IMG/VR virus record: IMGVR_UViG_3300017613_000718
Location: 1 to 50,202 of that record
From: a virus
Direction: 5' to 3' (one strand)
Length of the DNA: 50,202 bases
The notes beneath the pieces are model-generated. The model was given only the letters and a program-made list of their open reading frames with translations, searched no databases and was not told where the DNA came from. A program made the position numbers and the translations under genes. Of this stretch, positions 17,069 through 39,279 are shown in pieces. Position 1 is the stretch's first letter. Each line of letters starts with the position of its first letter.

Positions 17069-18964
17069 CTATTTGATATCTGAGATGCCTGAGAGGATGT
17101 CTTGGACTTGTCGCAATTCGTTCTGCAGATTTTGACCGTGCTGTTCAAGCGTGCTGGTGCCAGGGTCTGAAACGTCCATACCGTCTTCGCCAGTTGTGTC
17201 AGGTTTTCGCAGGTCACCAAGAGCATGCTTGGCCAGTTCCTGCAGGAATGCGTCGTTCTTGATTTGCGAAAGCAGCATGGACATCCCGTCAGGGTTGCTG
17301 GCCATCGCTCGCATTAGAGGGATGATTTGATTTGTACGTTTACGAAGGCGCTTGGCGGCGTCGATGACGGCACCACCGTCATAGTCCGCGTCCTCTGTGG
17401 TGAGTTCACCATCCTCGTCGATCGAGGTGCGTTGGCCTGTGACACGCTTGATGCGTTTTGTGCCGTGTCGGGCTGCGATTTTTGCGAGCGCCTCTTGCAC
17501 CTTCGCGGCGGATGCCTCACCAATGAACAGGTCTTTCATGTCCTCGGCAGTGACAAGCATGTCCGAGTCGTTATTGAACATGAGCCAACCTGATAACTCG
17601 CTACCATCACCGGTCAAGAGTTGGCGCATGTCTTCTTGGATACTCACGAGGTTCGCGCCACTGAACCCACCAGCGCCTGCACCAGTAACGGCCTTTGCCC
17701 GTTCAGCCTGTTTAGCCATCGCAAGATAGTAGTTGGCCAACGCCTCTTTGCTCTTGAGGTCTGTTACTGCGTTCAGCATCGGATAGCGGAGATGCAGGAA
17801 CTTCATGGTTTTGTGTAGAGACTCAGGGTCTATGTCAGGGTACTGGCGCAGCATGGCCTTGTAATGCACCTCTTGTGGTGAATGCTGCACGAATTGCACG
17901 TCGTCGAGTAAAGACAAGTCGCCTGTACGGATCGCCTTGTTTAACGTGCCGGCATCACCTGCAATGAACCCCATTTGGTTTTTCGCAAGGTCAACCAGAA
18001 AAGCCGCGTTGTTCCGCACGTCGGCCCGCGCTAAACGCTTTTCGTGTGTCTTCAGCGCAGCGTTTTGCAGCACCATGTTGTCGGCAGTCGCTTCACTGTA
18101 GTCGAGCTTGCTGTCGAACAGCGCCTGGGTGTGTCGCATTTCTTGACGTACTTGTGAGATCTGCTCAACCGTGAGCTTGCGCCCGAGACCCATCGTCGCG
18201 ATCTGCTGATCCATGAGTTGGAGGTTCTTACGGCGGGTGTCAGCTTCGAGTTGTGACAGTCCCGCTAAGTGCTCGTCCACCAACAGGTCAGTCTGTGCGC
18301 GTGTCTTGTCGATGCCAGCACGGGCCGCTGCAGCTCCAAGTTCAGGCATGCCCGCGTCGAGGCCCCGTTGCATGCCTTCAGTTTCTACTTGAGTCTGCGC
18401 GGTGCCAGCTTTCGTGGCCCCTTCTTGGGCACCGATCAGATCCTTTTGTGCCCCAGCCGTTTCCAGGTCCATGAACTTCTTACGCACGTCGGCTTTGAAG
18501 CCTGCTGCACGCCATTTGCGGAAGTTTTCAGGCGACATCCCGAATGTCTGCGCCAAGACCCGTTCGTCCACATCAGTCTGTGGCACCAACATCACGTCCG
18601 GACCAGGGTCACCGTCTTTCCGGTAGCGCTTGTAGGCCATGGTGTGTGCTGGACCGGTGAGCGGTTGGTTATCCGGACCGACGAAACGGCCAAGCATCGC
18701 ATCCATGGATTGGAATTCTACAAGCTCGTCGTCACGTTCCATGTTGGCAGCGAGGTCGGAGTAGTATTGTGCGGTCGCATCGGCGGTGATCCTTGCCGTT
18801 TCGCGATCTGTCTTTTTCAAGCCAAGTTGGTCTTGGTACCGTGCCTCTTCTAACTTCCTGCGCCTTTTCGCTGCCAACGTGCCGCCAACGATCTCTGCCA
18901 CGCCAGCCAAGACATCAGCGAGACTACCGCGCTTACCTCTGTAAGGAACTACTGCTCTTGCCAT
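17069..18964 (-). CDS. internal virion/ejection protein (631 aa), coiled-coil rich
   Basis: SD aggag. Assignment rests on position and composition. Confidence 0.5.
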   Translation of the reverse strand: MARAVVPYRGKRGSLADVLAGVAEIVGGTLAAKRRRKLEEARYQDQLGLKKTDRETARITADATAQYYSDLAANMERDDELVEFQSMDAMLGRFVGPDNQPLTGPAHTMAYKRYRKDGDPGPDVMLVPQTDVDERVLAQTFGMSPENFRKWRAAGFKADVRKKFMDLETAGAQKDLIGAQEGATKAGTAQTQVETEGMQRGLDAGMPELGAAAARAGIDKTRAQTDLLVDEHLAGLSQLEADTRRKNLQLMDQQIATMGLGRKLTVEQISQVRQEMRHTQALFDSKLDYSEATADNMVLQNAALKTHEKRLARADVRNNAAFLVDLAKNQMGFIAGDAGTLNKAIRTGDLSLLDDVQFVQHSPQEVHYKAMLRQYPDIDPESLHKTMKFLHLRYPMLNAVTDLKSKEALANYYLAMAKQAERAKAVTGAGAGGFSGANLVSIQEDMRQLLTGDGSELSGWLMFNNDSDMLVTAEDMKDLFIGEASAAKVQEALAKIAARHGTKRIKRVTGQRTSIDEDGELTTEDADYDGGAVIDAAKRLRKRTNQIIPLMRAMASNPDGMSMLLSQIKNDAFLQELAKHALGDLRKPDTTGEDGMDVSDPGTSTLEQHGQNLQNELRQVQDILSGISDIK

Positions 18965-19745: not shown

Positions 19746-20273
19746 TTATTCTCCTTGCTGTGCTGCCCAACTGGGCGTTGTGTCCCGGTCAGCTTGGTAC
19801 CAGATCACGTCTTCAGGAACCCCATTGTACCATAGGTATTTAGGCAAGACGGCTTGCCGAGTGAGTGGTATGGCGTCGAGAAGACGTTGCATTAAAAGGT
19901 TGCTGACGTTGGTGAAAGCGTCGATGTGGAAGAGGTCGTAGACTTGCAATGTGGAGTACCCAAGATAGTGCCAGTCCTCGGTCGCACGGCGCATTGCTGT
20001 GCGGTCCCATGCAGCGCCGTAGGTGACGCACCGCCATTTCGGTATGACGTTAGTGAATGCGATCATGCCGCCGCCGTCTGCGATGTCGTAGACGAGTGAG
20101 AGTGGGTGGCAAAAGGTGCGGACGTACCAGGCTTCAGGGTGTGCGAGGACACCGTCATGCCAGAACACTGGGATCTGACGAAGGTGCTCGAATAGTGTTT
20201 GGTGCCCAGTGGTATCGGTGGGCTCGATGCGCCGGTAGCCGCGCTCGGCAAGGGCGTTCACGAGGCGCTCCAT
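19746..20273 (-). CDS. GNAT-fold-like protein, paralog B (175 aa)
   Basis: VYDIADGGGMIAFTNVIPKWRCVT...HIDAFTNVSN...GVPEDVIWYQ follows the RimJ/RimL-type GNAT beta4-alpha3..beta6 pattern by eye. No clear Q/RxxGxG/A acetyl-CoA motif. Confidence 0.4.
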   Translation of the reverse strand: MERLVNALAERGYRRIEPTDTTGHQTLFEHLRQIPVFWHDGVLAHPEAWYVRTFCHPLSLVYDIADGGGMIAFTNVIPKWRCVTYGAAWDRTAMRRATEDWHYLGYSTLQVYDLFHIDAFTNVSNLLMQRLLDAIPLTRQAVLPKYLWYNGVPEDVIWYQADRDTTPSWAAQQGE

Positions 20274-20896
20274 TCAAGCCACGTTAGGTCACAGAGCTTG
20301 CCGTCGTAGCTTGTAGCTTCGTGGAGGGTGCCACGGGCCGCCATGCCTGCGGTAGTGAGGTGGTCAGTTGTGTCCAGGTCGTCACGTTTGGGGAATGCGT
20401 CCAGGCGGATCAGTCCGTGTGTGTAAGCGGCTACTCCGAACATGAACTCAATGGTCCCGGCAGGCAATAAGGCAACGTCTTCGTGCCAAATGTGGAGCGA
20501 CACTTTAGCTCGCCATTTAGGCTGGACGTGGCTGATTGCGAGCACCCCACCACCGTCAGCGAGATCGAACACGATGTTCTCAGGGCGGGTGAAGTGCGTG
20601 AGGAACCACTGCATTGGGTTGGCGCGGGCAGGATCGGGCCAGAAGTCAAGTTGCTCGACCATGTGTTTTGACAGTGCGATCTGTGCATCGCCGTCGTTCC
20701 ACTTGACAACACGTAAGCCCCGTTGCGCCAGAGGATCACGCTGGTTGTCAGGTTGCACCGCCTCGGCTAAGGGGGCTGACGCCGAGACATTATTTGTAGG
20801 AATGGTGCGAGAAGAAGGCTTAGCGGCTGCCTTCTGTCTAAGATCGTCGCGCAACGAGGCTAACGCTTTTGTCAATCGTGGATCACGGTCCTCCAT
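20258..20896 (-). CDS. GNAT-fold-like protein, paralog A (212 aa)
   Basis: VFDLADGGGVLAISHVQPKWRAKV...IRLDAF...YDGKLCDLTWLEW is paralogous to 19746-20273. Confidence 0.4.
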   Translation of the reverse strand: MEDRDPRLTKALASLRDDLRQKAAAKPSSRTIPTNNVSASAPLAEAVQPDNQRDPLAQRGLRVVKWNDGDAQIALSKHMVEQLDFWPDPARANPMQWFLTHFTRPENIVFDLADGGGVLAISHVQPKWRAKVSLHIWHEDVALLPAGTIEFMFGVAAYTHGLIRLDAFPKRDDLDTTDHLTTAGMAARGTLHEATSYDGKLCDLTWLEWSAS

Positions 20897-22638: not shown

Positions 22639-23064
22639 CTACAGGGACTCGATCAGGTCAACGACACGCTTGAGGCCAGCGTAGAATTCACCAACTGCCT
22701 GGTGCTCTTCAGCTTTGCGTTCCAACTCGTCAAGCCAAGACTTGAGTGTGGGTTTGACGGTGGGCCACATGGTGGACAACATGGTGAGTTCGGCTACTAG
22801 CCTCAAGCCGATTCGTAGTTTCTTCCAGAACTTCATGCGCGTTCTCCTTTTGTTGAGCACAGGCTCTTGATCTTGTTGTGCGAGCCAGGCTCTTTTAGCT
22901 GCACGGTGGGCCTTACGCCAACCGCCTTTGTTTCGTAGACGTGAAGAGGTGGCCGAGCGCCTCCGGGTTTGGATTGGTATTCGTCTTTTGCGCTGGCCGA
23001 CACGATAGACTCTCCTTGCTGGGCGGCGGGCTTGCGGCTTGCCGGTTGCTATGCGGCGGGTCAT
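22639..23064 (-). CDS. protein with extremely Arg/Lys-rich N-terminal 75 aa plus hydrophobic/helical C-terminus (141 aa)
   Basis: ATGA overlap with the upstream fibre gene. Sequence: MTRRIATGKPQARRPARRVYRVGQRKRRIPIQTRRRS... An alternative start at MKFWKK would give 65 aa. Confidence 0.45.
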   Translation of the reverse strand: MTRRIATGKPQARRPARRVYRVGQRKRRIPIQTRRRSATSSRLRNKGGWRKAHRAAKRAWLAQQDQEPVLNKRRTRMKFWKKLRIGLRLVAELTMLSTMWPTVKPTLKSWLDELERKAEEHQAVGEFYAGLKRVVDLIESL

Positions 23065-23918
23065 TCGACACGCAAGAGCGACACGTTCGCGGTCTTGACT
23101 TCCAAGTCTTGGGAGTCGCTTAAGTTTTCCAGATATAAGCTGACTTGGTCACTGGCAGACAAGGCTAAGATGCAGGTGGATGAAAAATGGTAGCTCTCAG
23201 TTGAGTCTGATAACGTGCGCCGACCTCGGCCTTCTGCTTTTGCGGAGCCGTCAATCATGACGCCACCATAGGCACCGACTGCTGTTGAGCCTGAGTCTAG
23301 TGTGACAGACATCGACCATTCTATAAAGTACGTGCCCGCATAGGTGACAGCGAGGTAGTGGTCGCTGAATGTGACGTTCTTTAGCACACCTGTTGTGAAG
23401 TCAGTGCCGCCGGTATTCACCTCTGTTGGAGTCTCGTCAGACGCGATTGCTACGGTGAAAAGGGAATTGGTGTACATGTGGCCGTAAGCGATCGGTGCCG
23501 CAACGAACGATCGGTTCACTACCCACCAGCCGGTGCCGTCACTCTGCAACGACACGCTATCGTATGTCCCACCAGGCAGGACGTATGCAGTGCCCGCGCC
23601 GCCCGAAGCGATTTGCTCGGTGCCGTCAGGGTCGATGCTGACGGTGTTCGCCGTGTCGTTTGTACGGACGAAGGTGTAGATGTATTCATCAACATCGGCT
23701 GCCGGGGGAAGGCTGATAGTGACCGCAGCACTGCTGGCATCGACGTGGCATACAGTATCGTTGACAGCGAGTGTGTAGTCGGCGGTCAGGGCCGTGACTT
23801 GTTGCTTGATCTCGTCATAAAGCTGCGCCCGCTCTGCGATCAAAGCCAGCTTCGCCTGCTGGTCCACACCTTCAGTGGTGGGGTTCAGTGCCGCCTGTAC
23901 GCGAAGGGTCTCGGTCAT
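23061..23918 (-). CDS. tail fibre protein with C1q/TNF-like C-terminal jelly-roll (285 aa)
   Basis: N-terminal coiled segment. C-terminus AGTYFIEWSMSV...GGVMIDGS...ILALSASDQVSLYL...ANVSLLRVE matches the C1q-domain strand pattern by eye. Confidence 0.45.
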   Translation of the reverse strand: MTETLRVQAALNPTTEGVDQQAKLALIAERAQLYDEIKQQVTALTADYTLAVNDTVCHVDASSAAVTISLPPAADVDEYIYTFVRTNDTANTVSIDPDGTEQIASGGAGTAYVLPGGTYDSVSLQSDGTGWWVVNRSFVAAPIAYGHMYTNSLFTVAIASDETPTEVNTGGTDFTTGVLKNVTFSDHYLAVTYAGTYFIEWSMSVTLDSGSTAVGAYGGVMIDGSAKAEGRGRRTLSDSTESYHFSSTCILALSASDQVSLYLENLSDSQDLEVKTANVSLLRVE

Positions 23919-24841
23919 TAGGAGATGCGCCCAAATTCAAAAGCAATAGGAGACACGGACAGGCAGTAAGCCCAAACGCGAACAGGGTCGCTGCCGCTGC
24001 TGTAGTTCCAGCATCGCAATTCGTACTCAAGGTTCCCTGTGCCGGTAGGTGCGTGGATGACGTGCATTGAACACGTAACGATTCCATCCGTGGCCTCGTG
24101 GAGCGTCAGTCCTGAGTTTGAGCCTTGCCTCGCGATCTCTGCAACCGAACCGCTAGGGTCAGTTCTGATGGCAAACGCTGGTTCGGCATCGGTGGGTGCC
24201 GTGCCACAGGAATAGCCTACGGTAGCGAGCACTAAGAACGGGGTGTCAGCGACCTGTACATTTATGGTCACAGATGCTACCTGTTCGTTACTCCCTACAG
24301 CAACTGAAGTGGTCCATACCGCGCCGGTAACTGGATCGTCGTCAACCTCATAGTTGAGCTGCGCCACGGGAAACTGCGCGTCAGCTGACACTTCAAGATT
24401 GGCCGCATCGAGTGTGCCTGTGACATCTGCGTCCACAGCGGTGAGTGTCGTCGTGGACTCCATAGTCGCAGCTTTCATTGCGTTGGCGACGAAGGTGTAT
24501 TGAGTGGCTGTGTCGGGCGCGGCCAAGGTGGCATCACCAGCCTTGATTTCCGCGTCGTCGCTGTTGATCACGAGCGCATAGTCACCGTCTGTGGCACCGG
24601 TCTCATAGACGTACCACTCGTCGGCTGCGGCTGACGCGTCACCTTCAGCTTCAGCTACACCACAGGTATGGCGACCGTCTTTGATGTCTTTGGGCGTGCC
24701 TTCTGAATGGTGGTGCCCGCCTGTTTGGAACCGTTCGCGGATCTGTTGCTTCATCTCCCGCATGCGGTTGTCACCGGTCTTGATTTCTTCGGTAGCTGCT
24801 GGAACTGTCTCGTCCCATGCGTCACTGATAATGTCCGCCAT
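23918..24841 (-). CDS. tail fibre/structural protein (307 aa)
   Basis: N-terminus DAWDETVPAATEEIKTGDNRMREMKQQIRERF...GGHHH is typical of phage fibre N-termini. The rest is T/A/V/D-rich and beta-rich. TAATG overlap with the next gene. Confidence 0.45.
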   Translation of the reverse strand: MADIISDAWDETVPAATEEIKTGDNRMREMKQQIRERFQTGGHHHSEGTPKDIKDGRHTCGVAEAEGDASAAADEWYVYETGATDGDYALVINSDDAEIKAGDATLAAPDTATQYTFVANAMKAATMESTTTLTAVDADVTGTLDAANLEVSADAQFPVAQLNYEVDDDPVTGAVWTTSVAVGSNEQVASVTINVQVADTPFLVLATVGYSCGTAPTDAEPAFAIRTDPSGSVAEIARQGSNSGLTLHEATDGIVTCSMHVIHAPTGTGNLEYELRCWNYSSGSDPVRVWAYCLSVSPIAFEFGRIS

Positions 24842-24844: not shown

Positions 24845-25552
24845 CTATCTCCCTTGCAAACGTGCTGTGGTTGGTCGTCCAACGTGGAAGTGCCCGAACC
24901 CACCTCTCGACTTTGCTTCTTCGTATGGTGACTTGCGCTCTGCGATGAACGCGAGGAAGCGTTGCTCTAGTGCCATGCTTTGGTCGGGCATGCGGAGTAG
25001 TTCAGCAGCCTCCGCGCCCGCTGCCAGGTGGATGGCTGTGTGCCATTCGGATGGGATCACTGGAGCTGAGCCACCTTCACTGAGTGTCTCAGGTAGGTTG
25101 TAGACGTACTCTGTGACGGTGACATCGCTGGTTGGGATCTTGTAGACCCGGTAGCCTTGGGTGTTGCTCTTACCGTCTGGGCACCAATAACGGAGGTACC
25201 CTGTGGCGGTCTTGTCCACGGTCATCATCTTGCGGTGAGGCCAGCCGTCGATGCGAACGCCATCGGTGTTGTTCCACAGGCCGTCTACGCTATAAACGCC
25301 AGTGCTGTTCGCGACGAAGTTATTCGTGAGTGATGAGGAGATCGTGCGCTCGATCTCGTGCTGGAGTTCGTAGAACCGCACGCGCCGGAACTGGGGTTGC
25401 TTTTGCCCAGGTCGTTGGACGTAGCCCTGGAAGGTCGCCAGGCGGTTGTAGCCTGACTGGACGCGGGCCAGGTACCAGGCGTCGGTGATGGTCGCTGATG
25501 AGCGGTTACCGACATGCTGTTGGGTCAAGGTAATGAGTTCGTCAGGTGTCAT
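24845..25552 (-). CDS. possible head-to-tail adaptor (235 aa)
   Basis: N-terminal ELITLTQQHVGN...ITDAWYLARV and C-terminal WHTAIHLAAGAEAAELL are reminiscent of P22 gp4-type adaptors. This is a weak call. Confidence 0.3.
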   Translation of the reverse strand: MTPDELITLTQQHVGNRSSATITDAWYLARVQSGYNRLATFQGYVQRPGQKQPQFRRVRFYELQHEIERTISSSLTNNFVANSTGVYSVDGLWNNTDGVRIDGWPHRKMMTVDKTATGYLRYWCPDGKSNTQGYRVYKIPTSDVTVTEYVYNLPETLSEGGSAPVIPSEWHTAIHLAAGAEAAELLRMPDQSMALEQRFLAFIAERKSPYEEAKSRGGFGHFHVGRPTTARLQGR

Positions 25553-25570: not shown

Positions 25571-26749
25571 TTATACCGTAGGCTCGCGTGGTGAGCGGGG
25601 TGGATAGTCGTCTCGGCTGGGTTGATCTAGGTCCAGGCCACGGCGCAGCTCGCCATTAGGAGTGCGCTCGAACTCGGACTCGTAGCGTAGGCCGTCACCT
25701 TGGATGCTGTCGATGTACGATCGTTGCCAGTTGATGGGCGATCGGCCATTCTCGGGCCAGGTAACTGGTATCTCCACAGGATTTGAGGCGAGTGAGACAT
25801 CATCGATGCGCCAGGTTGATGTGCCTCCTGTGCCTTGGAGACGGATAGTGAGCGCGCCTGTGCCGGATGCGAGGAATGAGAAGCCGAAGTGCTGCCACGT
25901 CAGGCGTGGGTCGGCGGAGGCGGTGTACAACTCTGTGGTCAAGTTAAAGACCGGGTCACGATCAATCCATTTGATCTGACCTGTTTCGTCTAACGTGACA
26001 GCACCTTTTGATTCTGTTCCTTCAAAGACTTCGAGCATGATCTTGCCGGTGCCGCTCACGAGATTAGCGAAGGCACTGGCGTAGACGCGGTCACCAGCTG
26101 AAGCTGTTTGGGAGGTGACCTGGGTGGCACGACCGGTCTGGCGAGTGAGCATGCAGTTGTCTACGTACCAGTCGTCCACGATGATCGGGATGAGGCTGGC
26201 TTGGCTCACGATGCGGATGCCGCCTGTGAGTGGAGCGCCAGCTGTGATCGTGTCGAATGAGAGCACTGTGGGATCTGAGATGTGCGCCCAGCCGGTGAAG
26301 TCATCGTGCGCGAGGGCACGTAGGAGGTTCCATACGCCTGTGCCGGGGTCGTAGTAGATCTGGCATTCGACGTTGATGGCGGCGTCTGAATTGGTGTAGC
26401 AGGAGAAGGTGTACGAGGTGTCTGAGTCCACTGAGAGGTATTGCCAAGTGTCGGATTCTTGGTTGCCGCCGAAGCCGTTGCGGGTGCGGAGACGGCAGGA
26501 GTAGTCGCCTTCGTAGACCTCGGTTGAGGACTGTTCACCGAAGCCGGTGTAGGTCCACACGTCGCCCAGTTCGTGTCCTGGGTCAAGTAGGAGGTTGGAG
26601 TCGTCTGCGGCTGCGATCTCTACGCTGGCGGCACCTGAGCGCATGGCGGACGTTATGAGCGTAGCGCCGGGATCTAAGGTCCAGGCTGCGACGGTCTCGA
26701 AGGAATTTTCGATGATGTATTGGCCATCGGGTGGGGTGAATATTGCCAT
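25571..26749 (-). CDS. fibre/receptor-binding protein with two CBM-like (galactose-binding-like) jelly-roll domains (392 aa)
   Basis: Two repeats end in IIVDDWYVDNCML and WRIDDVSLA, the typical last strand of CBM4/9-type modules. Confidence 0.5.
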   Translation of the reverse strand: MAIFTPPDGQYIIENSFETVAAWTLDPGATLITSAMRSGAASVEIAAADDSNLLLDPGHELGDVWTYTGFGEQSSTEVYEGDYSCRLRTRNGFGGNQESDTWQYLSVDSDTSYTFSCYTNSDAAINVECQIYYDPGTGVWNLLRALAHDDFTGWAHISDPTVLSFDTITAGAPLTGGIRIVSQASLIPIIVDDWYVDNCMLTRQTGRATQVTSQTASAGDRVYASAFANLVSGTGKIMLEVFEGTESKGAVTLDETGQIKWIDRDPVFNLTTELYTASADPRLTWQHFGFSFLASGTGALTIRLQGTGGTSTWRIDDVSLASNPVEIPVTWPENGRSPINWQRSYIDSIQGDGLRYESEFERTPNGELRRGLDLDQPSRDDYPPRSPREPTV

Positions 26750-26752: not shown

Positions 26753-28420
26753 TCATGGCTCCGGTGGCTCGTATTCGGTGCGGATGGTGGTGATCTCGCG
26801 CCATTCTTCGTGGTCGAAGTCGTCGATGTCGTCTGAGAGGCGCAGGCGCTGGTCGCGGTCTTCGAGCATGGATGATTCGGGGTGGAGGGTGCCCATGATT
26901 TCGTCTACGAAGGCGCGGTCGTGGTTGCGGCGTTGTGGGCCGGGGGCGTTCTCGGCTAATGTGGTTGTGCTGGCGGTTTCAGAATCTACGTGTGACCAAT
27001 GACCGTTGATGAATAGCCAATGGGGGTCGTAGCCGTCGTAGGTGGGGTCACCGTCTGCAAAGTCACCATCTGTGCAACGTAAGATTTTAAGGACAGCAGT
27101 GACGTATCGGCCGTTGGCAGATGAAGTGATGTCGAGAAGCGCGAAAGAACCTGGCACGGAAATGGACCTACCATGCCAAAGCACCCGGTCACCGCCTACG
27201 CCGTTGCCGAATGCGCTTGAACCAAGACCGCCTGCAGTAACCTGAGCACGCATAGCCGTTTTGACCTCACGGAAATTGGGGCCAACGGGTACAGGTGGAC
27301 GGTTTACAGTCGTGTCGTCAATCTTACTGACTGCGCCTAATGTCCAGTCAAGACAGTATGAGTGATGGTCATCACCGGTAAACACAAGTAAGCTGTTCTT
27401 TTCGCTGTAGCCGTAATCGTGCGCGACTTTCAAAATGTCGTTCACTTCTGATTTGTAGTAAAGTGATGCGCTGTCGCGTGCGCCAACACCCGTTCCAAAC
27501 CCAGTAGCTATGGGGTCTTTTAGTGTGCCACCAAACGTAAGTACCACAAGCCCCCGATCGGCATAGGCGACGAATTGTGCTTTTAGCCACTCACGTTGAG
27601 CAGATCCGAAACAAGTGTGATTGGGGTTATTTGGGTACTCGTCACCTGACCAGTGGGGTACGTAGTCGGTGTCGTCAGATTCATCACGCTTGGTGATGCG
27701 TTGTGACCTGTCTTCTGGGATGATAAAGGGCACGTTGGCCACAGTGAAAGAGTACCCGTATGATGGCGATGCTGGTTGTGGTCGGTCACGCCAGATATGG
27801 TCAGCCACGGTTTCAGCGTCGTCTGGCATCGTGTCGTAGTCGCCCCAGTCGCTGCTTGAATTGTCACCACCGTAATCCCAATCGTCCCATTGGAAAGCTA
27901 CGGGGAGGCGTGCAAGACAGTCTTCAACATCCGAAGTCCCGAGAGTAGCAATCCAGTTGTTCACGCCGGATGCCGCTGTCGTTATGCCTGACCCAGAAGC
28001 GAAGTCACCGATTTGCAAGATGAAGCCTGGAATGCCGTCAGGCTCGTAGTTGGTTTCCCAGTAAGAGAGGATGTCCGTGAAGCCCACAAGATTACTCGCT
28101 TTACCGTGCTGGTCCGCGCATTCAAATACGACAAACCGTCCTGAAGCGGGCATGGTCCATGTTGAATTCGTAGAACGTTCTGCCGCGCCTTCCATGATGC
28201 GGTAGTCGTATTTGGTGCCTGGGGTCAAGCCTGACGCGGTAAGGACCACGGTGTTGGACTTGGTGCCGTCGATCGCTTGGGTGTCTTGCGTGACCCAAGT
28301 CGTGGTGCCGTCTTCACGAGTGTCGAGGATGTAGGTGCCTGTAGTGACTGCTTGGCACCAGAGCGTGAAGCCCGTTTGCGAAGGCGGGCCGAGACGTGGA
28401 CCGGTTAGGAGAAGTGGCAT
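26753..28420 (-). CDS. PhoD-like metallophosphatase with purple-acid-phosphatase-type N-terminal FN3 domain (555 aa)
   Basis: N-terminus GFTLW...LTASGLTPGTKYDYRI is PhoD_N-like. FVVFECADQHG, ILQIGDFASG, FQWDDWDYGGDN and VFTGDDHHSY correspond to the metallophosphoesterase/PhoD motif series. Confidence 0.7.
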   Translation of the reverse strand: MPLLLTGPRLGPPSQTGFTLWCQAVTTGTYILDTREDGTTTWVTQDTQAIDGTKSNTVVLTASGLTPGTKYDYRIMEGAAERSTNSTWTMPASGRFVVFECADQHGKASNLVGFTDILSYWETNYEPDGIPGFILQIGDFASGSGITTAASGVNNWIATLGTSDVEDCLARLPVAFQWDDWDYGGDNSSSDWGDYDTMPDDAETVADHIWRDRPQPASPSYGYSFTVANVPFIIPEDRSQRITKRDESDDTDYVPHWSGDEYPNNPNHTCFGSAQREWLKAQFVAYADRGLVVLTFGGTLKDPIATGFGTGVGARDSASLYYKSEVNDILKVAHDYGYSEKNSLLVFTGDDHHSYCLDWTLGAVSKIDDTTVNRPPVPVGPNFREVKTAMRAQVTAGGLGSSAFGNGVGGDRVLWHGRSISVPGSFALLDITSSANGRYVTAVLKILRCTDGDFADGDPTYDGYDPHWLFINGHWSHVDSETASTTTLAENAPGPQRRNHDRAFVDEIMGTLHPESSMLEDRDQRLRLSDDIDDFDHEEWREITTIRTEYEPPEP

Positions 28421-28519: not shown

Positions 28520-29128
28520 TTAGTCGTTCGCGGAGTCAGCGTTGATGTGGCCGACTGGGTAGCCGTAGATTTGGATGCAGAGGTCGAGGACATCGTCCTC
28601 GCCGCCAGAGATCGCAGCAGGGCCGCATTTGAAATACCCTTCTGCAGGTGTGTACGGTCGAATGTTAGGCGTAGCCGCTTTAATGTCCCACCCGCCAGCC
28701 GCTGGGCTTTGGCCGGTTAGCGAACCAACAGCGCTGTCATAAGACCATGCCACCTCCACTGCGTCATACGTGCCGTCGTACACGGCCACGCCAGAAGGGT
28801 TGGTGTGGATGTCAATGGTAGTTGTAGCACCCGCGTTCAGCATTAATCGTCCAGCACCAACACCAAGACCGTCGTCAGTCGCCGCAGACAAAGTCGCGGC
28901 TGTACAGTCGAGTCGGCAATACCAACCAACAGCGACAACTCGCATGTCAAACGGGAACTGGAACGTGAAGGTCTTCTTCTTTGCTACGCTGGTCAATATG
29001 GCAGGCCCAAATGAAACAACCGTCAAAGCGCCTGCCACCGGTCCAGGATATGTTTGCCTACCACGCAATGACGCGGCAGCACGCCGGTCAGTACCCGCGA
29101 TACCAGAAGGGAACATTTTTCCTGACAT
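28520..29128 (-). CDS. structural-module paralog P3 (202 aa)
   Basis: Shares GPVAG, GATTT and the C-terminal GYPVGHINADSAND with P1 and P2. Confidence 0.6.
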   Translation of the reverse strand: MSGKMFPSGIAGTDRRAAASLRGRQTYPGPVAGALTVVSFGPAILTSVAKKKTFTFQFPFDMRVVAVGWYCRLDCTAATLSAATDDGLGVGAGRLMLNAGATTTIDIHTNPSGVAVYDGTYDAVEVAWSYDSAVGSLTGQSPAAGGWDIKAATPNIRPYTPAEGYFKCGPAAISGGEDDVLDLCIQIYGYPVGHINADSAND

Positions 29129-29137: not shown

Positions 29138-29629
29138 CTAATCGTATGCAGGATCGGTGTTGACATGGCCCCGACTGAAACCGACGACGTGGACGTTGTG
29201 CCCCTGACCCTCAATGGCACCATCAACAGCATCACAGGTCGCGGCTACAAACACCGCATCACCACGAGTGACTTCACGGGCTGCTGCAACAAGAGTAGTA
29301 GTGCCACCCGATGCAGCCTCAGCATAGCCTTCCGGGGCCACATCCAACGCAACAGTTGCAGCAAGCAGCGCGGTGCCTGTAGCAACCGTAAACCCTGCGC
29401 TGTTTGAATAAAAGTCGAGGTCCGCGTCAGCCGTGATGGACTCGTCGCCTCCGCTCCATTGGATACGCTCAATGCGAAAGTCACATGGCGCACGGAAGCC
29501 CCAAACTATCAAGTCAGCGTCCGCGATAGCAGCCAGGATTGAACTCCCACTGAACACCATGTACGTCCCAGCAACAGGTCCACCTAGATTGGTACGTCCT
29601 GCGTATAGATGAGGCGGCAATGTAGGCAT
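29138..29629 (-). CDS. structural-module paralog P2 (163 aa)
   Basis: The start was moved to ATG 29629, which forms an ATGA overlap with the P1 stop. MPTLPPHLYAGRTNLGGPVAGTYM...WGFRAPCDFRI...SGGTTT...GHVNTDPAYD aligns along its whole length with P1. Confidence 0.65.
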   Translation of the reverse strand: MPTLPPHLYAGRTNLGGPVAGTYMVFSGSSILAAIADADLIVWGFRAPCDFRIERIQWSGGDESITADADLDFYSNSAGFTVATGTALLAATVALDVAPEGYAEAASGGTTTLVAAAREVTRGDAVFVAATCDAVDGAIEGQGHNVHVVGFSRGHVNTDPAYD

Positions 29630-30108
29630 CAGTCGTACTCCGGGTTGGCGTTGATGTGTCCGGTAGCGTAGCCGGTGACATCCCAATTAAGGTTGGCCAC
29701 CGCGCCGGGCACGTCATCGCTGGTGTAGTGCATGAACACGCACCGGCCTTTCGCGATGTCACGAGCTGCTTCAGGAATAGTGGTTGTTCCACCAGACTCG
29801 GCACGGGCGTAGCCGGTCTCGTTCACGTCAATAGCGATAGCGGCTGCCAAGAGGTCGGTGTCGCTCGTGGCGCTGAACGTGGCGTTATGTGCGAACATGA
29901 TGTCCACGTTAGCGGTAGCCGCCGTAGGACAGACCCAAGAAATCTCAGTGATGCGAATGTCACATGGCGCGACGAAACCCCAAATGATCACACCAGCCAC
30001 TTCGGCTGCGCTGGTGTAAGGCCCACCATGCCACGTCATGTAACCACCGATAGCAGGCCCAGTTACGGTTGCCCGACCTATGCCAATATGGTCAGGAAGT
30101 ACAGGCAT
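29629..30108 (-). CDS. structural-module paralog P1 (159 aa)
   Basis: MPVLPDHIGIGRATVTGPAIGGYM...WGFVAPCDIRI...SGGTTT...GHINANPEYD. SD aaaggag. Confidence 0.7.
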   Translation of the reverse strand: MPVLPDHIGIGRATVTGPAIGGYMTWHGGPYTSAAEVAGVIIWGFVAPCDIRITEISWVCPTAATANVDIMFAHNATFSATSDTDLLAAAIAIDVNETGYARAESGGTTTIPEAARDIAKGRCVFMHYTSDDVPGAVANLNWDVTGYATGHINANPEYD

Positions 30109-30170: not shown

Positions 30171-30722
30171 CTACGTGTCAGTGTCGTGCGACGGGAAGAA
30201 GACACTGTTGGTGAACACGAAGATCATGCGCGGATTGTCAGCCGCTACGGTGCCCGCCAAGTGGTCAGTGTCCTGTGTGGTGTTGGCCTGCTTTGCCCAA
30301 CCGAGAGTGAGGCAGATGCCCAAGTCGAGGTCGTTGAGGTTGATGCAGCAGATGCCGTCATCGTCCTCAATGGTGCCAAAGTTGATGCCGATGTGCGTAG
30401 CGAACACACCCGACGCGATGTCAGTGGCCTCGTTGATGAGGTCACCTTCAAACATGGCACCAGGAAGTGCGAGTGCGACACTAACCCGTTCGTTGTTTGC
30501 TGCGGTGTGCATCGCGACACCGATGAGGCCGACAGCCGAACCGCCAACGGCAGTCGCAAACGGTGTGTCAGTGTTACTGACGATCACGTCGCCAGAAGAG
30601 AACTCCACAAGGTCACCGAGAGTAATGGCACCCCCGGCCAAGAACTCGAAGAGTGGGACGGAAGCTGTTCCACCAGCGCCGCCACGGGGTTTCATGGGCT
30701 GAGTTTTAAGTAGTGTAGCCAT
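30171..30722 (-). CDS. putative capsid decoration protein (DUF2190-like N-terminus, 183 aa)
   Basis: Lies immediately downstream of the major capsid gene. AGGAITLGDLVEFSSGDV...LIGVAMHTAANNERVSVAL resembles the DUF2190 pattern. Confidence 0.45.
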   Translation of the reverse strand: MATLLKTQPMKPRGGAGGTASVPLFEFLAGGAITLGDLVEFSSGDVIVSNTDTPFATAVGGSAVGLIGVAMHTAANNERVSVALALPGAMFEGDLINEATDIASGVFATHIGINFGTIEDDDGICCINLNDLDLGICLTLGWAKQANTTQDTDHLAGTVAADNPRMIFVFTNSVFFPSHDTDT

Positions 30723-30736: not shown

Positions 30737-31669
30737 TTATGACGGTGCCGAGCCGTACATCCCCAGCCAGTTGACGGGGGCTACGACGTAGCGCATGGTG
30801 CCGACGAAGACGGCGATAGTAGAACGGCGGTCGTCGAAGCTGTCGAGCTTCGGGCGACGACGCCACAGGAAGACCATCTTGTGCTTCGTGCCTTGGATGA
30901 TCCAGTCGTCCGCGTCGGTCATGTATGGGGTGACCTCGACGGTCGTCGCGTTTTGGGAGACGTTCTCGACACGGTTGGCCGTGTCTGGGCGATTGGAAGA
31001 ACCAACCACCTCTTCAGCCGAGTAGCGCTGATCAGGTCCGACGATGATACGAGCGGGCTTAGAGTACGCCGGAATGCGCAGGCCACGGTCGTTCACCCAT
31101 TTCTCGAACTGGATCAGGGCGTTACGGTAAGAGGTCATGTTGAGATCAACGTCGGTGCTGGGGCGATTGGCCTGAGCTGCAGCTTCACCACCGCTTACGG
31201 GTACGTGCGAGGTGGCGAAGAGACCTTCCGTGACGGTAGGTAAAACGAGCCAGGACGCGCCGTCAAAACCCTCAGCCCCGAAAGGCTTGTGGGCATCGAC
31301 TTCTACGCGTTCTGCGAGACCGTCACTGAGGCCAGTGGCGGCGTCACGCAGTGCTGAACCGTTTCCTGCATACAAGTCGTCTTCCCAGGCTTCTGCGGTG
31401 ACCTCGAAACCGAGGCCGTAGGTGCCGTGGGTGAACGTCTTGGTGTCACCTTCGAGCGCGTCGTATGACGTGATCGGCAGTCCTTCAGGCTTTGAGGCAG
31501 CCATCGGTAGCCCGGAGGCGTACAGATATTCCTCGGCTTTGCGCTCTGATGTCTCGACGTTGTAGAACTTCGAGTAGTACGTCATGCGCTCGACGAGGTT
31601 GGTGCCAATGATCTCCCTTAGCCCTGGCGTCAAGTGCTCAGCAACCGAGCCTGACATTGTGGGCGGCAT
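30737..31669 (-). CDS. major capsid protein (HK97-fold type, 310 aa)
   Basis: It follows the scaffold gene. FYNVETSERKAEEY...GLP...EG...FTHGTYGLGFEVTAEAWEDDLY is typical of Mu gpT-type/HK97-like coat proteins. Strong SD aggaggg. Confidence 0.75.
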   Translation of the reverse strand: MPPTMSGSVAEHLTPGLREIIGTNLVERMTYYSKFYNVETSERKAEEYLYASGLPMAASKPEGLPITSYDALEGDTKTFTHGTYGLGFEVTAEAWEDDLYAGNGSALRDAATGLSDGLAERVEVDAHKPFGAEGFDGASWLVLPTVTEGLFATSHVPVSGGEAAAQANRPSTDVDLNMTSYRNALIQFEKWVNDRGLRIPAYSKPARIIVGPDQRYSAEEVVGSSNRPDTANRVENVSQNATTVEVTPYMTDADDWIIQGTKHKMVFLWRRRPKLDSFDDRRSTIAVFVGTMRYVVAPVNWLGMYGSAPS

Positions 31670-34196: not shown

Positions 34197-36098
34197 CTAA
34201 AATCCAGACTCATCTTCTTGACCAGCAGGCAGTGCCTGGGGCTGACCTGCGGCGGTTTGGACTGACTGACTGATTTGGGACATTGACTCCTTGAGTTCAG
34301 CGATGTCGAGTAGGAATTCAGCGGGGTCGTGGACGGATTCGAGGCTGTTCAGCATTGATTCAGCTGACGCGAGAAGCTTCTCGGTGATCTTAAGGAAGAT
34401 GTCACGAGCGCCTTGTGGTAGCTGTGGTTTGAGCACCATTTGCATTGAGCCGACCATGCGTTCGTAGAAGGTCATCAGGAACTGGACCATCGTGAACTGT
34501 TCGGTCTTGCGTTTTTCGGCTGCGATGTTTGCGTCTTGTGCGAGGACTTTGATGACGACTTGTGTGCGGGCAGTGTCGGCGTTGAGGTTGAAGATGTAGT
34601 TGCTGAGAAGGAGGATCTCCTCGTCGGAGAACATGGCGCGTAAGGCTTCAGTGGGCATGCGCTTGCGATAGAGTTCGATGGTGAGGTAGACGCCTTCTTG
34701 CATACCGTCTGCGAGGGAGTTGATGGCACGGCGGCCTACTGATTGGCCTGCCTTCATTGCAGGTACACCGATGGCGGCTGGGACGCGCTTGCCTGCAGCG
34801 ACGTTGCCCACGGCTGTTTCATCGAGGCCAAGGAGACGAGCTGCGTAGACGCGGTTGAGTTCTTCGAGCGCGATGGCTTGGGCTGCGGCTTGAGGGTCAC
34901 CGAGTGGGTAGATCTCAACGTCTTCGTCAGGATCTTCTGTGGCCACGACCGTGCCAGGGAGAACGCCCTCGTCGCCACCGATCTCGCCTGCGATGGCGCG
35001 GTCTTGTTTGACCACGACGAGGTGCGCGATTCCGCGTTTGCCTCCCTCGATACCGATGTTGTGGATGGAGTTCGCTTCCTCTTGTGGGGATTGGAGGACT
35101 TCGCATACGCCCTGGCCTTGGCCGTCTGTTTGGCGAGGCGAGCGTGCGTATTGGACCATGACGATCGGGCGACGGGCACCGAAGGGGTTCCAGGCTACAC
35201 GGAGGATCTTGTTCGCTTTCTTGTGCCAATCGACGACGATGGATTCGAGGATGTTGTCTTCGTTGACATCCCAGTCGAGGTAGAGTTCGTCGATGTCGTG
35301 TTGGCGATGGAGGGCGGGAAGGTCGCGGTCCTCGTCTGCGAAGAAGCGTTCGATGTCCATCGCAGCGTTTTTGTAGTAGTGGTTGAGTGCCACCCATTGG
35401 AGGATGGAGCCCCAGGTGCGGTTGCGGACGGTGTGGCCCACGAAAGGCATCTCGTTGACGCAGGTGCCGTACCCGTTCCAGAAGATGAGATCGTCGAATG
35501 AAATGAAGTACCAGCGTGCGGTGCCGCGTTCGATGGCTTGGATGGTCTCGTTGGATTCGGTGACGCCTACGTTGCGGACTGAGTCTTGGGTGTAGGCGAC
35601 CTTCCATGCACCAAGGCCCCAGTCGGTTTGGTCCTGGCTGACTTGGCTGATTACTGATTCACCGTCGAGAGCACGCTTGTTGCGGAGCATTGCTTCGAGG
35701 AACTTGGCGAGGTTCTTGGTGGGTAGGGTGAAATCGTCTTCGCCACGTTTGGGGTTGCCCACGGGTTGGATGTTGAGGAGCGGTGTTGGGAGGACGGACT
35801 GCTCGAGATTTGCTTGTGCGACGTTAGAGGCCCACATGGTGAGTGGAACGCTGACGTTGGACACACCGGTCCGGAGCGGGGCGTCGGGGTTCACCCCAGA
35901 AAGTGTCTTCCGCCAGCGTTCAACTTTCTCCATGCGAGCGGAGTGTTGAGCGTGGACGAGCGTCATGCCGCGTTCGATGAACGAGGTGAGGTCTTCCATG
36001 CACTGTTCTGAGAGTTTTAATGGTGCTGTGATGTCGATCTCGGCACGGACATCGGCGTCTATGCGTGGTGGGGTGCCAGGAACGGGCTTGCGTGGCAT
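34197..36098 (-). CDS. portal protein (633 aa)
   Basis: Size and position, directly downstream of TerL. SD gaggaga. Confidence 0.75.
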   Translation of the reverse strand: MPRKPVPGTPPRIDADVRAEIDITAPLKLSEQCMEDLTSFIERGMTLVHAQHSARMEKVERWRKTLSGVNPDAPLRTGVSNVSVPLTMWASNVAQANLEQSVLPTPLLNIQPVGNPKRGEDDFTLPTKNLAKFLEAMLRNKRALDGESVISQVSQDQTDWGLGAWKVAYTQDSVRNVGVTESNETIQAIERGTARWYFISFDDLIFWNGYGTCVNEMPFVGHTVRNRTWGSILQWVALNHYYKNAAMDIERFFADEDRDLPALHRQHDIDELYLDWDVNEDNILESIVVDWHKKANKILRVAWNPFGARRPIVMVQYARSPRQTDGQGQGVCEVLQSPQEEANSIHNIGIEGGKRGIAHLVVVKQDRAIAGEIGGDEGVLPGTVVATEDPDEDVEIYPLGDPQAAAQAIALEELNRVYAARLLGLDETAVGNVAAGKRVPAAIGVPAMKAGQSVGRRAINSLADGMQEGVYLTIELYRKRMPTEALRAMFSDEEILLLSNYIFNLNADTARTQVVIKVLAQDANIAAEKRKTEQFTMVQFLMTFYERMVGSMQMVLKPQLPQGARDIFLKITEKLLASAESMLNSLESVHDPAEFLLDIAELKESMSQISQSVQTAAGQPQALPAGQEDESGF

Positions 36099-37961: not shown

Positions 37962-38192
37962 TCAATCCTTGGATGCGTCTAGGTAGATGTGGGGTGGGAC
38001 GTGGTGGTCGGGGTCGCGTTCTCGGTCGCGGAGCCACTTGAAGTAGGTGCGTTCGTTGATGCCACGCATGGCGAGTTCCCGGCGGAACTTCTTGAGGGCG
38101 CGGATGCAGGTCTCTTGGGCTTGTTGACGGGTGATGCCGAGTTCGGCGGCGATGGAATCGTAGGTGGGGAGGTCACCGTTATTGTTGCTCAT
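37962..38192 (-). CDS. small sigma-70 region-4-like HTH protein (76 aa)
   Basis: YDSIAAELGITRQQAQETCIRALKKFRREL matches the region 4.2 HTH pattern. It lies between the TerS-like gene and terL. Confidence 0.5.
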   Translation of the reverse strand: MSNNNGDLPTYDSIAAELGITRQQAQETCIRALKKFRRELAMRGINERTYFKWLRDRERDPDHHVPPHIYLDASKD

Positions 38193-38929
38193 TGCACTTC
38201 GACCTCTTCAGGTTCTACGTCAACGATGTCTGCGAGTACGTCTGACATGTCGAGACCTGATTCTTGGATAGCGTCTTTCATGTTGTTGGCCTGGATCTTG
38301 TTGGGACGGAAAGGTGTGACGTTTGATGCGTTGCCCTGGCCTGGTTGGGCAGCCATTCCTGACTGTTCGTATGCGGTCTTCGATGCGTCGATGGCGGCAC
38401 GGATTTCACCTGCTCCCATGCGACGTTCGCCAGCTGAGTCCATGCCGATGCGGTCGCGAAGTAGTTCGATGGTCTCTGATAGGAGGGTTTGGCTGCGGAT
38501 GTAGATGGCGCGTTGTCGGATGACGGGCTCGGAGGCTTCGCACGCGAGGGTCTTGTCGATGCTGGAGTATACGTCGGTGAGGAGTTCGTTGAAGATGACG
38601 GCGAATTGCGGGTCGTCCATGTGGGTTTGGAGCAGGTTCTTGGTGATCCCGACGTGCCGTGCGATGGCTTCACGATCGGTGAGGTTGTCTGAGAGGATGA
38701 GGCGACAGATTTGAGCGTAGCGGGCACGGACTACAGGGTCGATTGCGAATTTGCGACGGCGGTCTTTGCTGTATTTGCGTGTGACGATCATGTCCATGGA
38801 TTCATGGCGTTCGTGTTCGTAGGCGTCAGCTGCGTCAGCGGCGAGTTGCATTGGAGTTGGGTCTTCGATGTAAGCGTAGACCGGCGCTCGTTCGATGCAA
38901 CCGAAGTCGTACTTTCGTGGTCTTGGCAT
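38189..38929 (-). CDS. putative terminase small subunit (246 aa from ATG 38929; the track extends to a TTG at 38986)
   Basis: First gene of the late arm, upstream of terL. HTH-like LTDREAIARHVGITKNLL followed by a helical region. Neither candidate start has an SD. Confidence 0.45.
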   Translation of the reverse strand: MPRPRKYDFGCIERAPVYAYIEDPTPMQLAADAADAYEHERHESMDMIVTRKYSKDRRRKFAIDPVVRARYAQICRLILSDNLTDREAIARHVGITKNLLQTHMDDPQFAVIFNELLTDVYSSIDKTLACEASEPVIRQRAIYIRSQTLLSETIELLRDRIGMDSAGERRMGAGEIRAAIDASKTAYEQSGMAAQPGQGNASNVTPFRPNKIQANNMKDAIQESGLDMSDVLADIVDVEPEEVEVQ

Positions 38930-38935
38930 GGAGGT

Positions 38936-38965
38936 AGGATACGGTGATGTGGGCTGGTAGGTCAA
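38936..38965 (-). promoter_or_regulatory. candidate sigma70-type promoter giving a leaderless late transcript
   Basis: Minus strand reads TTGACC-18 nt-TATCCT, then 6 nt (acctcc), then ATG 38929. Confidence 0.35.
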
Positions 38966-39070
38966 GACGTAAATTCTTTCACGCAATAACTGTGCTTGAT
39001 GAGGGGGAGTTGTTGCGTAAAACCGAGGTCGAGAGTTAATGGGAACTATATTTCCCTCCCCCCTTACAAT

Positions 39071-39237
39071 CCCCCCTATAAAGAGTCTTTAATGATGCGG
39101 TTTGGGTTGGCACAGGATATCGTGAGAACGAAACTAAAGCGAAAGTGCATATAGTATTAGATCGATTTTGTGATAGTTAAAATTCCTTCAGCACATCTCA
39201 AATTTTGCGCTACATTTTTTGCAACTCTTTAGGGGGG
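39071..39237. repeat. inverted repeat CCCCCCTA(TA)AAGAGT / ACTCTTTAGGGGGG flanking an AT-rich 137-bp core
   Basis: 39071-39086 versus 39224-39237. The arms are complementary except for a 2-nt TA insertion. Confidence 0.8.
39151..39180 (-). promoter_or_regulatory. candidate sigma70-type leftward promoter
   Basis: Minus strand reads TTAACT-18 nt-TACTAT. Confidence 0.3.
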
Positions 39238-39256
39238 TACGGCGGTCGTGGTGGAA

Positions 39257-39272: not shown

Positions 39273-39279
39273 GTTCATT

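Follow-up and report, generated by a model that had tools for sequence, protein, structure and literature searches.

Why should a bacteriophage keep a gene for a PhoD-like phosphatase among the genes that build its particle? The question is raised by a stretch of 50,202 nucleotides, IMG/VR virus record IMGVR_UViG_3300017613_000718 (positions 1 to 50,202), which we call the window and which is a phage genome with a minus-strand operon at ~11.6-38 kb and replication genes on the plus strand. An earlier note, made by a model from the letters alone, had singled out an open reading frame (ORF) at 26753-28420 and suggested that it encodes a virion-borne PhoD-like metallophosphatase. The ORF is real: it lies on the minus strand, starts with ATG and encodes 555 amino acids (aa), and an identical protein is present in a public collection as P0001. 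The answer that we favour, and to which we give an even chance, is that the product is a PhoD-type phosphoesterase displayed on the particle. A module at its C-terminus would hold it, along with a lectin-like partner, at the head or where head and tail meet, and there it would act on, or bind, surface polymers that contain phosphodiesters. The protein is divided as follows, the module assignment being based on a hidden Markov model (HMM).

26753-28420, minus strand: whole ORF of the PhoD-like protein of the virion module (ATG start, 555 aa plus stop; ORF list and translation)
28145-28420, minus strand: N-terminal FN3-like beta-sandwich, residues 1-92, of PhoD_N / Pur_ac_phosph_N / DUF7800 type (Pfam, model, Foldseek FN3 matches)
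26981-28144, minus strand: PhoD-type metallophosphoesterase core, residues 93-480 (Foldseek, family profile, motif alignment)
26756-26968, minus strand: acidic C-terminal module of ~70 aa, residues 485-555, the proposed particle anchor (module HMM, bare versions)

Taken alone, the window protein gave only sub-threshold Pfam matches (Pur_ac_phosph_N, 1e-4; PhoD_N, 3e-3), and phmmer against the PDB returned FN3 noise only. A word-indexed homolog search found five relatives at 33-40% identity, and an exhaustive profile search yielded ~30 full-length family clusters, with 755 hits overall. The family analyses reported here use an alignment of 29 sequences with a mean column identity of 34%. PF09423 (PhoD) is matched by 12 of these 29 members at E<0.01 (best 9e-10) and DUF7800 by 21 (best 2.4e-10), and the family profile matches Bacillus subtilis PhoD (2yeq_A) with E=4.9e-6 over profile positions 47-366. 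The AlphaFold2 model built from the 29 sequences, used instead of a 6-sequence model that was too poor for use (predicted local distance difference test, pLDDT, 52.8), has a pLDDT of 75.6 and a predicted template modelling (TM) score of 0.80. Its N-domain shows six to seven strands at pLDDT 85-97. The best PDB match of the model in Foldseek is again 2yeq_A (E=5e-22, TM 0.63/0.66), followed by plant purple acid phosphatases at ~1e-13; in a viral structure library the best matches were ~650-aa viral proteins, Bacillus phage G gp352 and giant-virus PhoD-like proteins. The PhoD-type assignment holds at the level of family profile and fold. The earlier note's reading of a PhoD/purple-acid-phosphatase-type protein with such an N-domain is thus upheld, and the motif strings that it listed (LTASGLTPGTKYDYRI, FVVFECADQHG, ILQIGDFASG, FQWDDWDYGGDN and VFTGDDHHSY) are all in the translation; the profile check that it proposed fails with the single sequence, which stays below threshold, and succeeds with the family profile, which recovers PhoD.

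Two other assignments were set aside. A match to the OAA lectin family (myxobacterial hemagglutinin; profile positions 399-446, residues ~400-448, ~27080-27225, E=0.003) was taken as chance, because the stretch falls within the part of the protein that can be aligned in structure with PhoD (542 alignment columns against 2yeq_A). A purple acid phosphatase proper was ranked low: the seven ligands D, D, Y, N, H, H, H of the motifs GDxG, GDxxY, GNH[DE], VxxH and GHxH are not matched, there being no Tyr, a third motif that reads DDWD and not GNH, a motif V that reads GDDH, and a motif-IV His that is not conserved in the family (position 296 is S, T, H or F), and these enzymes are second-best structural matches only.

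B. subtilis PhoD (2YEQ; PF09423) is an Fe3+/2Ca2+ phosphodiesterase/phosphomonoesterase thought to act on teichoic acid; the PhoD family also includes a phospholipase D. The window protein shares its FN3-like N-domain and the same metallophosphatase sandwich, but is only ~14% identical and falls below the Pfam threshold. It also differs in having neither the Tat signal nor the C-terminal capping helix, a portable module of ~70 aa standing in their stead, and in being encoded in a phage structural operon. No signal peptide was found in it, and its first residues, MPLLLTGPRLG, are aligned to the N-domain families from position 2-6 of their profiles onward. The phage members begin directly with the FN3-like domain; the cellular-type relatives P0025 and P0027 carry signal-like N-termini, and P0025 is without the C-terminal module.

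This module (consensus YPPENxxxPxxFxRxYxDDxxGTLH...RDxxxRLRxxDDxDxxDRDxL...RxE) contains 19 D/E against 8 K/R in 66 residues, is modelled by AlphaFold2 as four short strands and one helix, and has no match in the PDB or Pfam. By eye it resembles a YD-repeat (YxDDxxGT.. / RDxxxRL..), a likeness that we do not claim. The exhaustive search returned proteins of 72-75 aa that match only the last ~60-70 profile positions, as well as a 252-aa protein with the module at its C-terminus. Over all searches, the bare module proteins of 68-75 aa are P0096, P0119, P0139, P0154 and P0155; the module search of the protein collection accounted for only two additional ones, one of which occurs on five contigs. 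The module HMM (residues ~485-555) also matches the ORF immediately downstream in the window (E=3e-10), and downstream genes in contigs L001 (2538-3296), L002 and L004 (4509-5255).

25571-26749, minus strand: adjacent 392-aa protein, with a putative, weakly matched jelly-roll/lectin-like N-part and the module at 25574-25777 (translation, module HMM)

The adjacent protein is 27% identical to its counterpart in L004 and has no Pfam match; CBM_4_9 is matched in relatives only, at E 0.006-0.12, so that the earlier note's label 'CBM-type' is a weak one. Each genome has 0-2 module-bearing genes, which stand directly upstream of the adaptor gene in every contig where that gene is present; in L102 (modules at 121-545) two bare modules, of 72 aa and then 68 aa, stand between the end of the PhoD-like gene and the adaptor. 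A short portable segment that is found on differing cargo or on none, just upstream of the adaptor, is best explained as a particle-attachment element, and this is the role that we infer for the module. The suggestion of a tailspike with an N-terminal particle-binding adaptor does not agree with these data: the model shows a globular protein of FN3-like and PhoD folds, without a beta-helix and without a shared N-terminal particle-binding domain, and the part that travels is the C-terminal ~70 aa.

Attachment to the outside is not the only use to which such a module could be put. It might instead be a signal of capsid-interior or scaffold-like type, by which the enzyme and its neighbour are packed into the head for delivery to the cell. 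C-terminal targeting peptides load cargo into HK97-fold shells (encapsulins), as does the C-terminus of the P22 scaffold in engineered systems, and the module is likewise short, charged and portable across proteins. We nevertheless regard encapsidation as very unlikely, since FN3-like and lectin-like domains, like those of the extracytoplasmic PhoD enzyme family, typically belong to externally displayed proteins and bare modules without cargo would be purposeless as cargo tags. Moreover, the window's counterparts of SU10-type ejection proteins, which in SU10 are encoded after the needle gene, are not here but at the operon's far end, at 17069-18964 and 11615-17053. The second of these, a minus-strand ORF of 1812 aa with no Pfam match at the distal end of the structural operon, would correspond by position to the large ejection/internal proteins of SU10-like phages.

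The landmarks around the PhoD-like gene are these.

34197-36098, minus strand: portal gene (weak SU10-portal match)
30737-31669, minus strand: major capsid protein gene (PF25209 Phage_capsid_4, E=6.8e-10; phrog_371 major head protein; 52% identity to the L024 capsid), the upstream landmark
29629-30108, 29138-29686 and 28520-29128, minus strand: three paralogous small beta-rich proteins upstream of the PhoD-like gene (BLASTP)
24845-25552, minus strand: SU10-type head-to-tail adaptor gene (PF24175 SU10_adaptor, 28.3 bits, cut-off 27), the downstream landmark
23918-24841, minus strand: fibre-like gene, conserved with its L001 and L004 counterparts over ~60 N-terminal residues only
23061-23918, minus strand: fibre-like gene with a weak BclA_C-like (C1q/TNF-like) C-terminal tip (E=0.0016)

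The PhoD-like gene is on one strand and in one operon with the genes for terminase, portal, capsid and adaptor, and its place is between the last two of these; the fibre-like genes, whose products are more likely to be the receptor-binding fibres, come after the adaptor. The earlier note was right to put the gene in a virion operon and not in a metabolic region, and wrong to call the place the tail-fibre part: the slot is a head/neck accessory slot. The tight packing that it described is seen on one side, where the downstream gene begins 3 nt past the stop codon; on the other, upstream, a gap of 99 nt contains a weak terminator-like hairpin.

The window shares its gene order (capsid, small paralogs, PhoD-like gene, 0-2 module genes, SU10-type adaptor, fibre gene) with L001/L002, L004 and L024, and in part with L023 and L102, the PhoD-like proteins being 32-36% identical to its own; taken more broadly, at least six contigs have the gene in this place, with PhoD-like identities of 25-36%. 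The window's adaptor is 40-46% identical to those of L001, L004, L024 and L102. In L024, where the PhoD-like gene stands directly before the adaptor, terminase, portal and capsid are 43%, 40% and 52% identical to the window's, and core proteins at 40-52% identity imply that the PhoD-like gene has travelled with the core genes. In IMG/VR this lineage is represented by a single contig, L106, which is identical with L024. Podophage contig L030, a more remote one, has in order a weak SU10_MCP match, three small genes, the PhoD-like gene and, directly after it, an SU10_adaptor match (E=4.5e-9); its PhoD-like protein (662 aa, PF09423 at 33 bits, 25% identity) has no module and ends in a part that looks by eye like a jelly-roll. 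What fills the slot thus varies from the enzyme alone (L024) to the enzyme with a lectin-like protein (window, L001, L004), with two bare modules (L102), or fused to the jelly-roll-like C-terminal part (L030).

Phage SU10, which has the same adaptor family, carries gp10 in this slot: its order is gp9 (capsid), gp10 (immunoglobulin, Ig,-like), gp11 (adaptor) and gp12/gp13 (long fibre), and its authors liken gp10 to the minor capsid protein of Epsilon15 and to the N-domain of the phi29 head fibre. Gp10, a suspected capsid or head-fibre accessory protein, resembles the window protein in slot and in its Ig/FN3-type domain; it has 132 aa and no enzyme domain. The window protein has the marks of a Hoc-like or gp10-slot display protein, namely a position between capsid and adaptor, an FN3-like domain and a slot of variable content. 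T4 Hoc is itself anchored by its C-terminal domain.

PhoD-domain genes also stand beside structural genes in other phages. The sole cultured-phage match to the window protein is the PhoD of Dolichospermum phage Dfl-JY23 (24% identity, E=6e-4), the gene of which adjoins one for a 'capsid fiber protein'. It belongs to a cyanophage set that further comprises Nostoc phage YongM and Anabaena phages Elbi, A-Lf14, A-Alj1 and A-Hlh1, in which the PhoD gene adjoins a 'capsid fiber' or neck-fibre gene; in the Anabaena phages phoD is consistently found beside neck-fibre genes (preprint 10.64898/2026.02.14.705889). In YongM the PhoD-family protein was the 7th best of 32 by mass spectrometry (score 1132, 35% coverage), ranking with capsid and tail proteins, while the adjacent capsid-fibre protein was 10th and replication enzymes scored ~19 (PMC8875764). 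Unlike the window's phage, these cyanophages are myoviruses, and their PhoD proteins have ~650 aa and no C-terminal module; that of Dfl-JY23, the one aligned, has a Cys-type motif I and retains both the Tyr and the His discussed below.

Two further cases come from tail regions. Thermobifida phage P1312 (KT021004; L104, region 61-10291) encodes gp22, a protein of 1096 aa with PhoD and CBM_4_9 domains, after the tape-measure and tail genes, and a glycosyl/glycerophosphate transferase gene is found near it. The siphovirus contig L016 (region 4833-12451) has an 816-aa PhoD-domain gene after tape-measure, Dit-like and virion-protein genes. Like the window protein, both place a PhoD-type domain among virion genes and combine it with a CBM/lectin-like part, and all three share the spacing WDDHD[FY]GxNN. 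They differ in scoring above the PF09423 threshold, in keeping the Tyr (GDLHY) and the His with a GDxG motif I, and in having the PhoD domain N-terminally in a protein of 0.8-1.1 kaa (thousand aa) without the C-terminal module; the hosts are actinobacterial, or the contig looks actinophage-like. The L016 protein is matched by 87 cultured phage records. Those over its PhoD half are annotated as hydrolase, phosphatase or purple acid phosphatase, and the Arthrobacter 'minor tail protein' matches cover its C-terminal half only. Other IMG/VR contigs encode distant PhoD domains above the Pfam threshold within proteins of 0.8-2.1 kaa, some with lectin-like domains. Proteins of ~1250 aa with a central PhoD domain above threshold are widespread (L010, L011, L015 and many soil contigs among L035-L101); three of them come from IMG/VR contigs of 33-35 kb, and one of these contigs has terminase and anti-repressor genes as well. 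A GTDB scan returned distant bacterial PhoD-like proteins and one truncated relative in a metagenome-assembled genome without sign of phage context.

These genes are also where a different explanation begins, namely that the protein never joins the particle and is a soluble PhoD-like phosphatase expressed late, with an auxiliary role in metabolism or a role at lysis. It would act on organic phosphate, inside the cell or released from it, or else from within on wall polymers or the nucleic acids of the host. The cyanophage phoD has been read as a phosphate-scavenging gene that is very highly transcribed, independently of the neck-fibre genes (10.64898/2026.02.14.705889), and the authors of the P1312 report thought gp22 to be secreted. 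In the window, the 99-nt gap and its hairpin before the gene speak for the same explanation; however, a scan for promoters and terminators near the gene found no more than chance would give, with 5 terminator-like hairpins against 4.6 expected. Auxiliary genes are usually patchy in occurrence and lie outside the core structural modules. The PhoD-like gene, by contrast, keeps a fixed place beside the adaptor gene across contigs that are 25-36% identical, and its product, lacking a signal peptide, would have no access to external organic phosphate before lysis. Fixed slot and missing export signal are both out of keeping with auxiliary phosphate-acquisition genes of the phoA, pstS or phoH type, and the module is common to a non-enzymatic neighbour and to bare module genes. 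We therefore consider a non-particle enzyme distinctly improbable, in line with the earlier note, which had listed an auxiliary metabolic gene as the alternative.

What the protein could do on a particle depends on its metal site. In B. subtilis PhoD, mutation of C180, D265, N271, N272 or D436 abolishes activity and mutation of D207 or D266 drastically lowers it; the enzyme has a tyrosinate-ligated Fe3+, and a natural subfamily carries Asp for Cys180 (PMC4223295). We converted chain to precursor numbering through the profile/2yeq alignment and the multiple alignment (chain Cys124 is precursor Cys180), and the numbers Tyr210 and His438 are our own count of the 2yeq chain against the mutant numbers of that study. 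In the alignment, C180 corresponds to window D103 (Asp, as in the natural Asp subfamily), D207 to D139, D265/D266 to D179/D180, N271/N272 to D186/N187, D436 to D350 and H438 to H352. The window protein also has counterparts of the LDTRQYR and MDSW stretches of PhoD, and differs from it in a DxH motif I, in lacking the Tyr210 ligand, in a Trp for the His of WDDHE and in one additional residue ahead of the NN pair.

28106-28114, minus strand: motif I, D103-Q-H105, of DxH type; D in 27/29 members (Cys in one), H in 28/29
28004-28009, minus strand: motif II, G138-D139; D139 invariant, the Tyr of GDxxY absent (S142; position 142 variable)
27860-27889, minus strand: motif III, WDDWDYGGDN (PhoD WDDHEvxNN), with D179, D180, W181 for His, D182, D186 and N187
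27698-27715, minus strand: E236-D-R238-S-Q-R241, equivalent of PhoD LDTRQYR; R238 invariant, position 236 D in 28/29 and E in the window
27470-27478, minus strand: R315-D316-S317, equivalent of the PhoD MDSWDGY region; R315 invariant, D316 in 27/29
27365-27376, minus strand: motif V, G349-D350-D351-H352 (PhoD GD436xH438; TGDVH of 2yeq); D350, D351 and H352 invariant

Seven of the 12 invariant columns of the family fall in catalytic motifs (D139, D180, D182, N187, D350, D351, H352), and D103 and H105 are near-invariant. Within motif III, D180, D182 and N187 are invariant, position 179 is D in 26/29, and position 186 is N in 25 members and D in four. By sequence alignment, the positions of the Ca2+-site and bridging ligands (D265, D266, N271, N272, D436, D207) are retained in the window protein. 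The tyrosinate Fe3+ site is incomplete, with Asp103, Asp139 and His352 present and Ser at the Tyr position. The metal-ligand check proposed by the earlier note accordingly gives a divided result at sequence level, most PhoD ligand positions being kept and the Tyr lost, and the replacement of the WDDHE His that it had seen is confirmed as W181. In the family, this position is W in 21 members, H in six, Q in one and F in one.

The departures from PhoD go together. Among ~100 homologs with well-aligned cores, counted with kinship ignored, the Tyr is lacking in 62 of the 65 with DxH/CxH against 13 of the 35 others (Fisher p=3e-10), and Trp at the WDDHE position is confined to the DxH/CxH class (40/65 against 0/35). 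A His in DxH is a feature of classical metallophosphoesterases, and from the alignment the DxH histidine may replace the tyrosine at metal site 1. His and Trp alternate among close relatives, the nearest neighbour being Trp-bearing for four of the six His-bearing members, and the alternation implies that either residue can stand at position 181 while the remainder of the site stays intact. The sequences thus point to a distinct, maintained PhoD subclass marked by DxH, no Tyr and Trp.

The same changes could mean that hydrolysis has been lost, and that the protein is a non-catalytic adhesin on the particle, a metal-dependent binder of phosphorylated surface polymers that raises adsorption as Ig-like or Hoc-like decoration does. 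The Trp in 21 of 29 members and the absence of the Tyr ligand would fit such a binder, as would the restriction of Trp to the DxH/CxH class, the lectin-like partners that are adjacent or fused, and the occupation of the SU10 slot by an Ig-like protein. Binding, though, does not usually need what is kept here: the remaining metal-ligand positions, together with R238 and R315, are invariant in a family of such low mean column identity, and close relatives exchange His for Trp with the rest of the site undecayed. We judge a pure adhesin unlikely.

Several points weigh against a particle-displayed, active enzyme and have to be set beside the evidence for it. The His of WDDHE is a general-acid or transition-state residue in related metallophosphatases; with Trp in its place in the window protein and the PhoD tyrosine ligand absent, catalysis may be weak or lost. 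The active-site loops are modelled with low confidence (pLDDT ~50-70 near residues 103-112, 140-160 and 180-200), and the window protein alone reaches no Pfam threshold, with no catalytic-domain match and no PF09423. The anchoring role of the module is read from its distribution, since the module is without a known homolog, and no cultured relatives of the phage lineage were found. SU10 gp10 was not seen on the SU10 capsid map, and the virion mass-spectrometry table, in the portion of the P1312 report that is accessible, gives no coverage value for gp22. The YongM sample was a concentrated lysate and not gradient-purified particles (PMC8875764). The reading of Anabaena phage phoD as a phosphate-scavenging gene transcribed on its own comes from the only experimental work on phage phoD (10.64898/2026.02.14.705889).

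Enzymes on the particle that attack phosphodiester-linked wall polymers have precedents in other folds. The phi29 gp12 appendages and the GDPD-domain tail proteins of staphylococcal phages have the task proposed here, the cutting of teichoic-acid-type polymers during adsorption; their folds (a beta-helix in gp12, a TIM barrel in GDPD proteins) are unrelated to that of the window protein, and they are tail-located and N-terminally anchored. We know of no PhoD-type example of a virion-borne wall-polymer enzyme shown experimentally.

In the reading that we favour, display of a PhoD-type enzyme on the particle, these pieces would fit together in the following way. The three-part protein (FN3-like N-domain, PhoD-type core, acidic C-terminal module of ~70 residues) would be made in the cytoplasm and not exported. 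During assembly it would be fastened to the particle by its C-terminal module, on the head or where head and tail join, and not as a tail fibre, and the neighbouring lectin-like protein would be attached through the same module. On encounter with a host, the PhoD-like domain would meet surface polymers containing phosphodiesters or phosphomonoesters, such as teichoic-acid-like polymers, phosphoglycan capsules, lipopolysaccharide phosphates or extracellular DNA, and would cleave them, or at least bind them through its metal centre, helping the phage to reach or keep hold of the cell surface. The metal centre itself would be a remodelled one, with the Ca-site ligand positions kept, the DxH His in place of the Tyr, and a second-shell His changed to Trp.

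Other features of the window complete the picture. Its first and last 121 bases (1-121, 50082-50202) are identical, an exact terminal direct repeat, which implies that the 50.2-kb contig is probably a complete phage genome, circularly closed or terminally redundant. The three small proteins upstream of the PhoD-like gene are indeed paralogs, as the earlier note had it: 29629-30108 and 29138-29686 are 44% identical (E=3e-40), and the third copy, 28520-29128, matches them at E=2e-4 and 3e-3 (BLASTP). All three terminate in GH[IV]N..[PS].[YN]D, and multi-copy homologs occupy the equivalent place in L004, L023 and L024; they may serve as decoration or vertex proteins and as partners of the C-terminal module. 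The 183-aa protein at 30171-30722 (minus strand), whose gene immediately follows that of the capsid, has a weak Phage_cement_2 match (E=0.06) and may be a cement or decoration protein. Another adjacent paralog pair (19746-20273 and 20258-20896, minus strand; 26% identity, E=2e-18) is found among the tail/ejection genes. On the plus strand, 789-2729 encodes a 646-aa protein with an N-terminal uracil-DNA-glycosylase-superfamily domain (E=4e-18), and 7873-8841 is a 322-aa ORF with a weak DNA_pol_A fragment match; together they may represent a split or unusual family-A polymerase arrangement. The stretch 38000-44000, between the divergent operons, has a GC content of ~0.51 against 0.55-0.59 elsewhere and is probably an early or regulatory region. 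A PHROGs search gave no match for the PhoD-like protein or for eight of the nine neighbours tested, a tRNA search of the window found none, and no lysis gene was matched among the ORFs tested.

Annotated phage PhoD-family genes and virion-borne polymer-degrading enzymes are both already known. What appears to be new is a conserved PhoD-like component of the head/neck slot in an uncultured SU10-like lineage, a portable C-terminal module found on neighbouring proteins and as bare genes, and a correlated DxH / no-Tyr / Trp variant of the active site, a signature that marks a PhoD subclass. A bolder version, which we put forward tentatively and hold to be doubtful as a whole, is that this SU10-like podophage lineage hangs swappable cargo (a PhoD-type enzyme, a lectin-like jelly-roll or nothing) on its particle by means of a plug-in module of ~70 residues, at a site encoded immediately ahead of the adaptor gene, and that the enzyme, a metal-dependent phosphodiesterase, is the first virion-borne depolymerase of PhoD fold, its active site (DxH for the Tyr ligand, Trp for the second-shell His) defining a new PhoD subclass. 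An uncultured group of phages has in the module a candidate display tag of natural origin.

Phage phoD genes are currently annotated as phosphate-scavenging auxiliary genes. Their place beside head, neck or tail genes in the window's lineage, the cyanophages, P1312 and L016 suggests that at least some of them encode particle proteins, and the mass-spectrometry score of the YongM protein points in the same direction. The depolymerases so far known from virions are, with few exceptions, glycosidases, lyases or esterases, and many bacterial surface polymers, among them teichoic acids and several capsule types, are phosphodiester-linked. If the reading that we favour is true, the protein would be a candidate reagent against such polymers and the extracellular DNA of biofilms, and PhoD-type enzymes carried on particles would be a new class among the tools with which phages adsorb to their hosts.

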